The translations under genes and the position numbers were made by a program. From positions 1 through 52,847 of the forward strand of contig JBLIMJ010000005.1 of NCBI GenBank assembly GCA_047638595.1: a stretch of 52,847 nt of DNA. Direction: 5' to 3'. The stretch comes from Acidimicrobiales bacterium (GTDB lineage: Bacteria; Patescibacteriota; Minisyncoccia; Phycocordibacterales; UBA918). Below, one piece after another: positions 4,287 to 27,889 of this stretch; positions within the stretch are counted from its first letter, which is position 1, and the number at the start of each line of letters is the position of its first letter. The notes beneath the pieces are model-generated. The model was not told where the DNA came from and made no database searches. It saw only the letters and a list, made by a program, of their open reading frames with translations.

Positions 4287-4501
4287 AATACAATCTAAAA
4301 AACTGGATGGATTGCGCGATGGACAAGAAAGAAAACCTGAGCGGGGCTTCATGCCCAGCGTGAGAAAGTCTGGGAGACTTTTGCAAGAGGTTGGCTAGTA
4401 TTTTGAAGAATGAAAAATACTGACGACCTGAACAGCTTCTGTAAGAAGGGTCTATTTTCGCAGTCTAACAAAGCAAGTCGCCAGTTTTTTTAGATTGTAT
4501 T
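4287..4501. repeat. Palindromic element whose arms mirror the pilC 3' end and which encloses a structured module
   Basis: AATACAATCTAAAAAACTGG (4287-4306) vs CCAGTTTTTTTAGATTGTATT (4481-4501), one indel; internal 4360-4448 is homologous to 29931-30020. Confidence 0.75.
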
Positions 4502-5698
4502 GGTGAGATTGTAGATTGGCATAAGCACTGACGCCAACAACGTACCAACTCCCAGCCCGAGCATTACAATCATAATCGGCTCAATCAAACCAATAAGTGT
4601 ATCCACCGCATTATCTACTTCACGTCGGTAAAACACTGCAAGAGTACTCAGAATCTCTCCCAAGTTACCAGTTTCTTCCCCTACTTTCGCCATCTGTGCC
4701 AATACCCCTGGTATTTCTGGATATTCAGAAATAGTATCAGCAAAAGACCTTCCTCCTTTTACCTCAATGACAGTGTATTGAATAATCTCTTTATAAATAC
4801 GGTTATCTACCACGTCTGCTGTAACTTCAAGTGCTTTCACCATAGAGATACCACTGGTAAGCATTGTAGAAAGGTTGTCACACAACCGTGTGAGATATAA
4901 CTTACGATTGAGATCACCAAGATAAGGGATGGAAATCTTCAGACTATCCATAGTGTATTTACCGACTTCAGTTTGAAGAAAACGCCATATACCAAATCCT
5001 GCACCTGCTACAAGTACAAATAAAATTGCAATATAGTCTGTTAGGAATGAAGACATACCAATAACGATTTTTGTATAAATAGGAAGTTCTTGACCTGACT
5101 CAGTTAGAATTTTTGCAATTTTTGGAATAACTAATGTGAGCATCAGACCCATTACTACAAAGAACGTTCCGACCACAAATGCAGGGTAGACCATGGCGTT
5201 TCGTGCTTTGCTAATCAACTCATACTGGCGGTCAAGGTAGTCAGCCAGGAATGAGAAAGATTTTTCCAAAGAGCCTGTTTCTTCTCCAGAACGAACCATA
5301 CTGATATAAAAATTTGAAAAAACATCTGGGTGTGAACTCAAAGAACGAGAAATAGAACTTCCTGCCTGCAACTCGTCTGCGACTGTTCCTAGTACCTTTC
5401 TCATTTGTGGATTTTCAGCTTCTGCTGCAAGAAGTCTAAAAATACGCAATGCAGAAACTTGCGCAGAAAACAATGTGGACATCTGGCGGGAAAGTATCAC
5501 GACTTCCTTGTGAGAAATAGACTGGAACCAGTTGATTTCAAGATTGAGCAACGACGATTTCTCGTCAACTTGATCAATCGAGATGACTGTGTATCCTTCT
5601 TTTTGCACTCGGGAAATTGCAGCATCCACCCCAGACGCTTCAACAACACCTTCGCGCGAAGTGTTGTGTGAATCGATTGCTTTGTAATTAAATAACAT
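4490..5698 (-). CDS. pilC: Type IV pilus inner-membrane platform protein (PilC/GspF)
   Basis: Two GspF repeats, GEETG motifs, YP and EP motifs, 402 aa. Confidence 0.93.
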   Translation of the reverse strand: MLFNYKAIDSHNTSREGVVEASGVDAAISRVQKEGYTVISIDQVDEKSSLLNLEINWFQSISHKEVVILSRQMSTLFSAQVSALRIFRLLAAEAENPQMRKVLGTVADELQAGSSISRSLSSHPDVFSNFYISMVRSGEETGSLEKSFSFLADYLDRQYELISKARNAMVYPAFVVGTFFVVMGLMLTLVIPKIAKILTESGQELPIYTKIVIGMSSFLTDYIAILFVLVAGAGFGIWRFLQTEVGKYTMDSLKISIPYLGDLNRKLYLTRLCDNLSTMLTSGISMVKALEVTADVVDNRIYKEIIQYTVIEVKGGRSFADTISEYPEIPGVLAQMAKVGEETGNLGEILSTLAVFYRREVDNAVDTLIGLIEPIMIVMLGLGVGTLLASVLMPIYNLTNTI

Positions 5699-21388: not shown

Positions 21389-21784
21389 TTCAAATCCCGA
21401 CATCTCTCACAAACGCAAAAGACCCTGAAAGCGAGAGCTTTCAGGGTCTGCGTTGTGTGGAGAGTAAGGGATTCGAAGCTTACAGCTTCAGTCTGCCTTT
21501 TGGACATATTACTTCGCTTCGCTCGTAATCTGTCACAAAAGCCTTTCGAATCCCTTACTCTCGCGCAAATACAACAAAACCCAAAGACATGCTTTGGGTT
21601 TTGGTATTTGCGGAGAGTAAGGGATTCGAACATTACATGTTCAGTACACCTTTTGGCTATATTATTTCGCAAGCTCATAATCTAGCTCAAAAGCTCTTCG
21701 AATCGTGCAACGCTTTTCTTAAGAAAAGCTGCACCCTTACTCTCCGCATATACAAAAACGCCCCAAAGGGCGTGATTGTATATG
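21389..21784. repeat. Array of alternating direct and inverted copies of the tRNA-Ser(ACU) 3' end separated by hairpin modules
   Basis: GGAGAGTAAGGGATTCGAA at 21459 and 21612; inverse at 21545 and 21697-21747 (interrupted); degenerate inverse at 21389. Confidence 0.9.
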
Positions 21785-21871
21785 CGGAGAGTAAGGGATT
21801 CGAACCCTTGGAACCGTTTAAAGTTCGGCAGTTTAGTAAACTGCTGCTTTCGACCACTCAGCCAACTCTCC
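21785..21871 (-). tRNA. tRNA-Ser(ACU)
   Basis: GGAGAGT/ACTCTCC acceptor, G73, long variable arm, anticodon arm GCAGT-TTACTAA-ACTGC, GGTTCGAATCC T-arm; CCA not encoded. Confidence 0.88.
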
Positions 21872-22110
21872 AATATTCTATTGTCGGGAAGTTGGCTTCG
21901 GGTCGAACAAGTTCGGTCCACTTCCCTGCGGTCGGATGATATGCCTCCCAGGCATATCATCCACTCAAGGTCCAGCGATTTTCTCAATGGGAGAAAAAAT
22001 CGGGACATAAATTCATAATATAGCCTTTGTCTATTTATTCATTCACCAACTCTCCATTTTTCAACCTCAGCAGTATAGCAATTCTGTATGAAAACTAAAG
22101 CTTTGTGTGA

Positions 22111-22429
22111 CGGCGACGAGAGGAATTTTTCTCTCTCTACGAGGGCAGTATAGGTTGTCGATATTTCTTGCGAAATATCTGGCAACCTTTTCGAATCCTC
22201 TCGTCTCTCTCAAACGTAAACATGGCGAATGCATACGCATCCGCCATGTACGTTTGCGGAGACGAGAGGATTCGAACATTACATGTTCAGTCTGCCTTTT
22301 GGACATATCCTACCTTCGGTCGAATCTGTCACAAAAGCCTTTCGAATCGTGCAACGCTTTTCTTAAGAAAAGCTGCACCTCTCGTCTCCGCAATAGAAAA
22401 AACACCCCAGTGGGTGTATTTTCCTATTG
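22111..22429. repeat. Array of alternating direct and inverted copies of the tRNA-Ser(GCU) 3' end separated by hairpin modules
   Basis: GCGGAGACGAGAGGATTCGAA at 22256, degenerate copy at 22111; inverse at 22190 and 22341-22391 (interrupted). Confidence 0.9.
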
Positions 22430-22515
22430 CGGAGACGAGAGGATTCGAACCTCCGGGGGCTTAACACCCCACTTCCTTAGCAAGGAAGCACGATAGACCA
22501 CTCTGACACGTCTCC
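22430..22515 (-). tRNA. tRNA-Ser(GCU)
   Basis: GGAGACG/CGTCTCC acceptor, G73, anticodon arm CTTCC-TTGCTAA-GGAAG, long variable arm. Confidence 0.93.
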
Positions 22516-25582: not shown

Positions 25583-27889
25583 ATGAAACTCACCGACAAA
25601 CTTGCTGATCATTTCCGTGTTGATGTACCCCATCAGAAGGCATTGAAACGACTGCGTATTGAGACGGTTGAGGAACTCTTGTACCACCTCCCTGCACGGT
25701 ATGAGGATATTTCTGAAGTACAGTCCGTTGGAGGTTTAGTAAAAGACCAAGAAGCGATTGTGTATGGACAACTCTCGGGTCTCAAGAGCCGAAAGGCATG
25801 GAAAAGTAAGCGTCCTATTGCTGAAGGGTTTATTGAAGATGGTTCAGCAAAGATAAAAGTGATGTGGTTTAACCAGCCTTATCTGGCGAAAATGTATGCT
25901 GACGGTATGTATGTAAAAATGGTTGGCAAAGTAACTGGCTCTGAAGGAAAACTATACATCGCAAACCCTGAAGTAGAAAAGCTTGATTCATTACCCATCG
26001 ACCGCCATGATTCCATTTTTAAAGGAACTGATGCTGAGATTAATGACACCCTGTACCCTGTCTATCGTGAGAGTAAAGGAGTAACGAGCAAATGGTTTTA
26101 TCACACAGCACTGAAGTGCTTTGAAAAAAAGGTACTTGAAACACTTACAGACCCCATCCCAAAAGATATTCTTGACCGATACCACTTACCTGAACTTGCT
26201 ACTGCACTGGTATGGGTCCATTCACCGAAAAAAGCTGAGCATGCACAGAGCGCGCGAAAACGCTTTGCATTTGAAGAGGTTTTTTACATCCAAGTTCAAA
26301 AAGCACTTGAGCGTGCGCAGGTGAGTGCCGCTACAACGTATCAGTTCAACACCACTCCTACCCACGTGAAAGAGTTTACCGAACGATTCCCTTTTGAGCT
26401 CACTGCCTCACAAAATAAATCAATCAACGAAATCATTACTGACTTCAATGGCAATCATGCCATGTCTCGTTTACTTGAGGGTGATGTAGGAAGCGGGAAG
26501 ACTGCGGTTGCGGCAACTACTGCGTATGCAGTAGCAACTTCGCGCCCTCCTGAGGGACTCAAAAGTTCTTACGCTAACCTTGAAACTTTGGGAGACGATT
26601 CGAGGCGTGGAGAACGTGACGAAGGAGGCGTGGGTCACCACGATGACAGAGGCACAGAGGCTCCACAACAAAGAAGGGTCCCCAAAGTTTCAAGGTTAGA
26701 CTTTGGCAATCTGCAGGTTGCGTATATGGCACCAACAGAAATTCTCGCAAAACAACACTTTGAAAGTTTCATCGAATACTTCCACCACCTTCCTATTCAA
26801 ATAGGTCTCATTACCGGTTCTGGTTGTATGAAGTACCCAAGCAAGACCGACCCTACTAAACCAACAAAGATAAGTAAGGCCCAGCTTTTAAAGTGGGTTA
26901 AAAATGGCGAGGTGCCAATTGTGATTGGCACACACTCTCTTATATATAAATCGGTAGAGTTTAAACACCTCGCGTACGTCATCATTGACGAGCAACATCG
27001 TTTTGGTACTCGACAACGGTCGGCTCTAGCAAAAAAGGACGAGCGTATGCCTCACTTACTTTCAATGACCGCAACCCCTATCCCCCGCACCTTAGCATTG
27101 ACCATTTATGGGGACCTCGACATCACCTTGCTCGACGAAATGCCGTCTGGTAGAAAACCAATTATCACTGAACTTGTTGGTCCTGGTCAGTCAAAGAAAA
27201 TGTATGACCACGTACGTAGTGAGTTACGTGACGGGAGACAGGCTTATGTCATCTGTCCGCGCATTGAGGAGCCCGACCCTGACAAAGCAACTGCGCTGCG
27301 GTTAAAGAGTGTAACTGCCGAAGCAGAACGTCTGCAGAAAGACGTGTTTCAGGAATTCTCAATCGGTATTCTACACGGGAAAATGAAACCAGCCGAAAAA
27401 GACGCCATGATGCTGAAGTTTACTAACCATGAGATAGACATACTCGTAGCGACCTCTGTGGTAGAAGTGGGGGTAAATGTCCCAAACGCAACTAACATAA
27501 TCATCGAAGGTGCTGAACGTTTTGGTCTTTCTCAGTTACACCAACTTCGTGGGCGCGTGGTACGCAGCAATCATCAAGCATATTGCTTCGCGGTAACTGA
27601 CAGCAAGTCAGAGAAAACACGTGACCGCTTAAAGGCACTTAAAACTGCTAAAAATGGTTTTGAACTTGCCGAGCATGACCTCAACTTCCGTGGAAGTGGA
27701 GAACTCTACGGAGCGAAGCAGTCAGGCCTTACCGACCTCGGTATGGAAGCCATTAAGAACCTCAAGCTTGTGGAAGCGGCACGTGCCGAAGCACGTGCCT
27801 TAGTTGCAGATAGCTCCGACCTTTCCCGTGACTTCCCCTTGATTCACCACAAAGTCACCCAGACACTGGAAAGTTTGCATATGGAGTAA
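25583..27889 (+). CDS. recG: ATP-dependent DNA helicase RecG
   Basis: RLLEGDVGSGKT, APTEILA, DEQHRFG, MTATPIPRT, QLHQLRGRV, RGSGE. Confidence 0.95.
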   Translation: MKLTDKLADHFRVDVPHQKALKRLRIETVEELLYHLPARYEDISEVQSVGGLVKDQEAIVYGQLSGLKSRKAWKSKRPIAEGFIEDGSAKIKVMWFNQPYLAKMYADGMYVKMVGKVTGSEGKLYIANPEVEKLDSLPIDRHDSIFKGTDAEINDTLYPVYRESKGVTSKWFYHTALKCFEKKVLETLTDPIPKDILDRYHLPELATALVWVHSPKKAEHAQSARKRFAFEEVFYIQVQKALERAQVSAATTYQFNTTPTHVKEFTERFPFELTASQNKSINEIITDFNGNHAMSRLLEGDVGSGKTAVAATTAYAVATSRPPEGLKSSYANLETLGDDSRRGERDEGGVGHHDDRGTEAPQQRRVPKVSRLDFGNLQVAYMAPTEILAKQHFESFIEYFHHLPIQIGLITGSGCMKYPSKTDPTKPTKISKAQLLKWVKNGEVPIVIGTHSLIYKSVEFKHLAYVIIDEQHRFGTRQRSALAKKDERMPHLLSMTATPIPRTLALTIYGDLDITLLDEMPSGRKPIITELVGPGQSKKMYDHVRSELRDGRQAYVICPRIEEPDPDKATALRLKSVTAEAERLQKDVFQEFSIGILHGKMKPAEKDAMMLKFTNHEIDILVATSVVEVGVNVPNATNIIIEGAERFGLSQLHQLRGRVVRSNHQAYCFAVTDSKSEKTRDRLKALKTAKNGFELAEHDLNFRGSGELYGAKQSGLTDLGMEAIKNLKLVEAARAEARALVADSSDLSRDFPLIHHKVTQTLESLHME
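26574..26699. mobile_element. 126-bp in-frame palindromic insertion in recG
   Basis: Perfect 19-bp terminal inverted repeat CTAACCTTGAAACTTTGGG / CCCAAAGTTTCAAGGTTAG; exactly 42 codons; lies between helicase motifs I and Ia. Confidence 0.75.

Follow-up and report, generated by a model that had tools for sequence, protein, structure and literature searches.

Palindromic repeats lying in frame within protein-coding genes are known from Rickettsia. In the available excerpts of four articles (PMC10969869, PMC2229807, PMC3733652, PMC3184786), the Rickettsia palindromic elements (RPE-1 and its relatives, studied by Ogata et al.) are described as 105-146 bp in length, present both between genes and in frame in conserved proteins, and tolerated there. 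The available part of a 2007 review (PMC2229807) also reports in-frame fusions of the ERIC repeats. Here, a hairpin insert in the recG gene of an Acidimicrobiales bacterium (Patescibacteriota in the GTDB lineage) is described. The window, namely the whole stretch of DNA that was analysed, is the 52,847-nt contig C5 of a 927-kb genome in 43 contigs (G000). I propose that the insert is probably an in-frame copy of a genus-wide family of hairpins of about 125 nt. It is likely to be non-autonomous, mobile, settled in a tolerant loop of RecG, and translated as a disordered loop of 42 residues.

As with the RPEs, a palindrome of RPE-like length lies in frame in a conserved protein, and intergenic copies exist as well. 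In contrast to the RPEs, the copies in this lineage are nearly all intergenic, docked at stop codons and in one orientation, and the arms differ between copies. A search of the genome with the RPE1 peptide model TIGR01045 gave nothing at E<=1, and no NCBIfam family was found on the insert in its own frame. The family works like the RPEs but is not shown to be an RPE, the comparison having covered descriptions and the peptide model. An earlier note on this sequence had proposed a comparable selfish element that adds peptide loops. The family, the empty sites and the predicted loop bear this out, while "selfish" and "translated" stay suppositions, with no mobiliser linked to the family.

The recG locus has the following features.
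25583..27889, plus strand: recG, 768 aa, the host gene (Pfam and NCBIfam RecG; the translation shows motifs I, Ia, II (DEQH) and VI (QLRGRV))
26489..26503, plus strand: helicase motif I (GSGKT), upstream edge of the RecG host loop
26574..26699, plus strand: in-frame hairpin insert, 126 nt, 42 codons (inverted repeats, fold, match to model R1, see below)
26574..26592, plus strand: left arm, 19 nt, fully complementary to the right arm
26607..26666, plus strand: inner stem GTGGAG (26607) / CTCCAC (26661), a covarying helix of the family
26629..26642, plus strand: apical stem-loop CGTGG / CCACG, an altered form of the family tip CGTAC-loop-GTACG
26681..26699, plus strand: right arm, 19 nt
26726..26740, plus strand: helicase motif Ia (MAPTE), downstream edge of the RecG host loop

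The earlier note had described perfect 19-bp inverted repeats bounding an in-frame 126 bp of RecG, between motifs I and Ia, with nested stems inside. All of this was reproduced: the arms are 100% complementary over 19 nt with 88 nt between them, the open reading frame runs through from 25583 to 27889, GSGKT starts at 26489 and MAPTE at 26726, and the two stems lie at 26607/26661 (GTGGAG/CTCCAC) and 26629/26638 (CGTGG/CCACG). The folding energy is -59.5 kcal/mol (z = -6.05; none of 200 shuffles equals it), and the GC content is 53% versus 46% in the rest of recG. Excision of the insert gives ...GLKSSYDFGNLQVAYMAPTE, the peptide that the note had written, with a motif I-Ia spacer of 32 aa, which is the commonest allele among the congeners. 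The other carriers have spacers of 69-81 aa; thus, the exact sum of 32 and 42 is a peculiarity of this genome. At the outermost position, C-G here, only 3 of 13 carriers form a Watson-Crick pair, so that the true element probably spans 26575-26698 (124 nt). One contig of a source-like sequencing run covers the whole stretch, and no junction interrupts it at the insert; run X2 does not include the insert, which carries no weight either way. A promoter and terminator scan found none in the insert, the counts being at the level of shuffles.

An inverted-repeat scan of the genome revealed other 127-nt hairpins with different arms and a similar core. An iterated hidden Markov model (HMM), partly seeded by recG inserts, gave 39 matches at E<0.001, and about 35 intergenic copies of the family are present in this genome. 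When 19 intergenic copies were aligned, two-sided change was seen in 39 of 42 predicted pairs. The covariance model R1, built from these 19 intergenic copies only, scores the recG insert at 42.7 bits (E 6e-8), its top match in the window. At the RecG loop, R1 matches all 13 carrier loci (30.9-58 bits) and none of the 17 non-carrier loci. Sequence-only profiles of the inserts and of the intergenic copies score 43.2 against each other, versus 15.5+/-2.6 for shuffles, which supports the membership of the insert in the family. Thus, the search for other genome copies suggested in the earlier note was successful with the HMM and, among intergenic copies, with R1. R1 has matches in 24/24 congeners (1-74 per genome), in 2/15 other families of the order and, under strict filters, in 6/100 other genomes drawn from the phylum. 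Among the 19 intergenic copies, the arms are 41% and 38% identical versus 60% in the core; the arms are therefore not conserved ends of the transposase type. Rfam had no match on the insert and two matches on the 19 intergenic copies, which is chance level. A comparison of one intergenic copy with phage and plasmid collections gave no match. The literature search yielded no description of the family (subscription journals and supplements lay outside the search).

Among 35 intergenic matches, 29 end 25 nt or less from the stop codon of an oppositely oriented gene, and no match starts where a same-strand gene stops. All 27 host genes that were scanned have Pfam families; the hosts include groEL, secY, tuf, rpoC, gyrA, gyrB, atpG, nusG, greA and six ribosomal protein genes. 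In 19/19 intergenic copies, the better-folding strand, both as RNA and as DNA, is opposite to the host gene. The recG copy is exceptional, since the better-folding strand of the family is the sense strand of recG; as RNA, the recG mRNA strand folds better in 11/13 carriers. Replication strand was considered as an orientation rule for the intergenic copies and rejected: on contig C2, where the GC skew is negative throughout, the only two copies that face the other way are those whose host genes do so too. It could yet explain the orientation of the recG copy, since both copies on its contig face the same way. Elsewhere, a recG-type core lies at a stop codon in G143, and in G103 a recG-type copy (L088:1473-1604) directly precedes the thrS start codon. 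A T-box leader would be expected at that thrS site. In G141, a family copy with the recG-type core lies in frame and antisense in a class I (Ile/Leu/Val-type) tRNA synthetase gene (L090:521-655), a gene which also encodes a histidine-phosphatase domain.

Is the insert common in recG of the relatives? In a survey of the genus, the loop query found a match in 116 of 128 genomes, a full insert was judged by a continuous match, and the loop sequence itself was read in the top 30 loci. The full insert lies at the same recG site, always in frame, in 13 of the 116 congeners. In a separate set of 30 loci (29 parsed), a motif I-Ia spacer of 32 aa is the most frequent, versus 74 here. From 79 further loci, 75 were parsed, with 27 aa in 32 of them (Adlerbacteria, Nomurabacteria and others), 32 aa in 24 and 72-80 aa in 9. 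Thus, empty sites, which the earlier note had advised looking for among orthologues, are common. Other relatives have in the loop 3′ remnants, shorter K..DL remnants or at least three unrelated hairpins. At locus L245, the 5′ part of a second subtype lies 81 nt before a full copy, and both left arms complement a single right arm; by my reading, a third left-arm fragment may lie ahead of both. In G035, the recG frame breaks outside the insert, once at a homopolymer just upstream, possibly through sequencing errors. By a motif search, the peptide is present in 79 of the 120 best-listed protein clusters, a list biased towards carriers.

The alleles were placed on a quick RecG tree of 49 rows, made without the loop and without bootstrap from a sample enriched for carriers; G030, G009, G111, G139 and G103 were left off as incomplete. 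The 12 carriers on it need 10 changes, at least 6 of which are forced by starred branches, and 15 changes are needed when remnants are counted. The carriers do not cluster more than shuffles do (151/500 as low). The distances between arms do not follow the RecG distances (rho 0.10). I infer that the recG site was occupied long ago and has since been eroded and repeatedly refilled or exchanged between alleles, transposition and recombination being inseparable in these data.

Within recG, base pairing has been kept while the sequence changed. In the 13 carriers, 95.5% of cells pair, and two-sided change is found in 24 of 41 pairs. None of 500 shuffles reached this covariation and slid structures came nowhere near it, although kin are not independent. 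The left arms are 65% identical across species, while complementarity is 96% to the own arm versus 66% to the arms of other species. Full copies have a mean of 16.0 complementary bases out of 17 in the arms (n=15), and remnants have 7.5 (n=12), many of them also being without a left arm. The earlier note had named a peptide conserved without the palindrome as the finding that would speak against it; the peptide-bearing orthologues retain the palindrome (mean 16.0/17, n=15). The recG frame is open in 13/13 inserts, and every one of the 13 has stops in each of the other two sense frames, whereas the frame in the recG register is open in 0/19 intergenic copies. The ratio of nonsynonymous to synonymous divergence (pN/pS) of the insert is 0.59 in frame versus 1.34 and 0.77 in the other two frames, and 0.094 in the flank. 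The insert has pS 0.43 and pN 0.25, and the next 42 codons have pS 0.83 and pN 0.08. The insert is thus under weak protein constraint, plus either nucleotide constraint or younger age.

The close RecG homologues are named Paceibacteria, Kaiserbacteria and similar, names that point to Patescibacteria as the lineage. The RecG loop has 64 residues here versus 9 in Thermotoga RecG (1GM5). An AlphaFold2 model from 92 sequences has the RecG fold, with residues 322-373 as coil with a predicted confidence score (pLDDT) below 50, between a helix (306-319) and a strand (379-383). The low score is compatible with disorder but no proof of it. The surface loop suggested for modelling in the earlier note was therefore obtained as a predicted disordered loop. 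In five homologues (P0028, P0042, P0050, P0059, P0069), a PD-(D/E)XK_3 / GxxExxY domain (PF13366) lies in frame just after DEQH, and the hairpin peptide is present in them as well. The recG of G066 has an open frame of 940 aa and may hold the same PF13366 insertion.

The arms of the stop-docked copies mirror the host sequence. In 19/27 stop-docked copies, 6 or more coding bases are paired with the distal arm in the predicted fold, some of these pairs being loose extensions. The rpsI gene allows a comparison, in which the WSKR end is common to empty and filled congeners and the ends were parsed in all 30 loci. The family lies on the rpsI stop in 3 of the 30 loci; its presence is thus patchy. 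The distal arm mirrors the last 12 rpsI bases of its own host at 11/12 in both G000 and G021, though their codons differ. Other short hairpins, 4 or 27 nt past the stop, mirror the last 12 coding bases at 11-12/12 in five loci (L208, L212, L215, L227, L228). Thus, mirroring is lineage-wide and not private to the family. In the available text of two papers (PMC8794818, PMC8604942), template switching is described as making and maintaining matched arms and as homogenising arms within coding DNA.

The family was also compared with other repeat systems. The 127-bp repeats of E. coli K-12, which I take to be the enterobacterial ERIC/IRU repeat from their places and core (the record carries no such label), resemble the family in length and in position near gene ends, and appear to share its long hairpin, order of stems and purine-rich internal loops. 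In 40 kb of E. coli, 10 of 12 R1 matches fall on the 127-bp repeats, on one strand and in the same register. Conversely, a reciprocal model (R2) built from thirteen E. coli copies has family copies as its top 7 matches, the best at 33.9 bits (E 7e-7, the E-values being rough), and the insert of the window is not among them. However, R1 scores on the E. coli copies (11-24 bits) overlap those on unrelated hairpins (15-19 bits), R1 under strict filters had no match on the whole E. coli chromosome, and the sequence-only profiles of ERIC and the family show no link (17.0 versus 14.9+/-2.6 for shuffles). The arms of ERIC are also more conserved (65-68%) than those of the family. Most of the scores are weak, and the resemblance is one of architecture and not demonstrated homology.

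Miniature inverted-repeat transposable elements (Correia/NEMIS, RUP) are likewise small, multi-copy, non-coding and gene-adjacent, lack a transposase gene, and have terminal inverted repeats and a long stem-loop. In the family, however, the terminal repeats are not conserved among copies, the ends are not consistently TA, no target duplication was seen, and no insertion sequence with matching ends was identified by searches for Y1, tyrosine-recombinase and reverse-transcriptase families. The attC sites of integrons have a variable sequence with a kept structure, lie at stop codons, and fold better on the strand opposite to the gene; their core ends read RYYYAAC ... GTTRRRY. The family shares the variable sequence with kept structure, the stop-codon position and the opposite-strand folding. 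In contrast to attC, no RYYYAAC/GTTRRRY ends are conserved across the copies, only the right end of the recG copy reading GTTAGAC, and the hosts are scattered housekeeping genes rather than cassettes. The REP/REPIN-RAYT systems share structure-dependent hairpins with this lineage, in which two Y1 genes are present and a palindrome from one Y1 flank recurs in the recG loop of two congeners; they differ in that the 125-nt family is larger and flanks neither Y1 gene.

These RAYT-like Y1 transposase genes (L171, G000:C1:59943; L172, G000:C8:381) are each bracketed by their own short palindrome. The two flanking motifs have 8 and 20 matches in the genome, on both strands, and the recG loops of G119 and G124 contain, in frame, a short palindrome related to one of them. 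The genome has one tyrosine recombinase gene. No direct repeat flanks the insert, relatives being too distant for an empty site at the nucleotide level. TA opens the left arm in 7/13 carriers and is indistinguishable there from the inverted repeat itself.

The proposal of a mobile family copy in a tolerant loop is supported directly by family membership, by empty sites, by the kept frame, by pairing kept despite arm divergence, by patchy presence and by two subtypes stacked in one allele. Several points weigh against it. A sequence HMM from 34 intergenic copies failed to find the recG insert, and the genome-wide R1 search, with 150/222 candidates scored, did not list it. No transposition event or target duplication was found. 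No enzyme was linked to the family by searches for Y1, tyrosine-recombinase and reverse-transcriptase genes (DDE and IS110 enzymes were not searched): neither L171 nor L172 has an R1 match, other palindromes flanking both, and no reverse transcriptase was found in the genome, which is 91% complete. The third rpsI copy mirrors only 9/12 bases. Synonymous divergence is half as high in the insert as in the flank (0.43 versus 0.83), which equally fits host selection on an RNA structure. Finally, the distances between insert cores follow the RecG distances (rho 0.52, p 0.002, n=12), which favours long vertical inheritance, at least inside subclades, and the RecG tree is a quick one, without bootstrap and enriched for carriers.

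The low synonymous divergence leads to a different explanation, in which the hairpin arrived once and is now kept in the recG mRNA as a domesticated RNA structure that might serve, for instance, in ribosome pausing or in RNase III-type processing, much as the intergenic copies could act on the 3′ ends of highly expressed genes. The compensatory change through the inner helices would be expected, and so would the better-folding strand being that of the mRNA (11/13, as RNA). The 27/27 scanned hosts of intergenic copies with Pfam families, many of them core, may be read in the same way, and ERIC is described in the available part of the review (PMC2229807) as affecting mRNA stability in Yersinia. 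However, about 103 of the 116 congeners, including the sister row G143, have no full insert, the mRNAs next to the intergenic copies carry the worse-folding strand (19/19), and unrelated hairpins fill the same RecG loop. I consider this explanation unlikely. Somewhat more doubtful still is one ancient insertion followed by passive decay, in which generic template switching at replication would match the arms, and deletion or recombination would restore the empty lengths. It would account for core distances that track RecG distances, for the graded series of remnants and for a genome rich in long perfect palindromes, and the available text (PMC8604942, PMC8794818) has template switching homogenise arms in coding DNA. 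On the other hand, remnants have lost arm complementarity (7.5/17 versus 16.0), a weak point as many have also lost the left arm; asymmetric internal loops persist and have not been perfected; L245 holds two stacked subtypes; and the tree needs 15 changes even with remnants counted.

Two further explanations are very improbable. An intron-like intervening sequence, excised from the RNA and never translated, would suit the long perfect closing stem that brings the junctions together and the loss of 126 nt that restores the ancestral loop length here. In contrast, the frame is open in 13/13 carriers with stops in the other two sense frames of all 13, dropping the 124-nt element proper would shift the frame, the remnants stay in frame as peptide, and Rfam gave no intron match. 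The other takes the 42 residues for a functional protein module under protein-level selection, with an incidental palindrome. The recognisable peptide in 79 of 120 listed homologues (a list biased towards carriers) and the in-frame pN/pS below 1 agree with it, but it is largely refuted by the covariation: the arm residues change freely while the DNA complementarity is kept. In addition, pN is three times that of the flank, the region is predicted as coil with pLDDT below 50, and most congeners lack it.

Under the favoured proposal of a mobile hairpin family, the element would be recognised by its fold and not by fixed ends. The distal arm would be written as an inverted copy of the adjoining sequence through template-switch or fold-back copying, either during insertion or afterwards. 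The recG loop would be repeatedly filled, eroded, refilled or exchanged between alleles, with the host selecting mainly for an open frame. The copying may be performed by a host-encoded single-strand hairpin-processing enzyme, for example a RAYT-like HUH nuclease; this is a guess with no direct link.

Another family copy lies in the window.
4289..4499, plus strand: second family copy, split or composite (found by the sequence HMM, absent from the R1 list of the window)
It ends where a minus-strand gene of the T2SSF/PilC type (4490-5698) stops. Composite copies, whose right half is swapped for a common different sequence, were seen here (4289-4499) and at C2:1780, C33:916 and C4:12381 of G000. 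At 21460-22449 of the window, copies of a second repeat family are clustered; they have tRNA-like arms (TTCGAATCC) and contain nested hairpins, and the motif has 25 matches in the genome. Perfect hairpins of 20-28 bp, terminator-like on both strands, also occur by the dozen in the G000 genome, which suggests active perfection of palindromes in the lineage. Apart from the repeats, locus L185 (G000:C3:37914-38807) encodes a NusB fused to a NUDIX domain.

These results extend Rickettsia-style palindromic peptide insertion, itself a known phenomenon, to a DNA-repair helicase of a streamlined lineage. The natural series at one site, with empty, full, eroded, replaced and stacked alleles, is unusually rich. 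It shows pairing kept within a coding sequence as the amino acids change, which standard fixed-end models of miniature transposable elements leave unexplained. The host-mirroring arms, together with the structural likeness to the E. coli 127-bp repeat, offer a testable handle on repeat copying, a question left open in the available part of the 2007 review (PMC2229807). A bolder and tentative idea, which I hold to be rather doubtful, is that the family consists of mobile hairpins recognised by fold alone, which copy the host target inverted into one arm, dock on the stops of highly expressed genes, re-invade the same protein loops time after time, and share ancestry or a mobilising enzyme with ERIC. 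If this were true, Patescibacteria would reveal the way in which ERIC-like repeats spread, and such repeats would be sought across bacteria with a structure model in place of sequence search.
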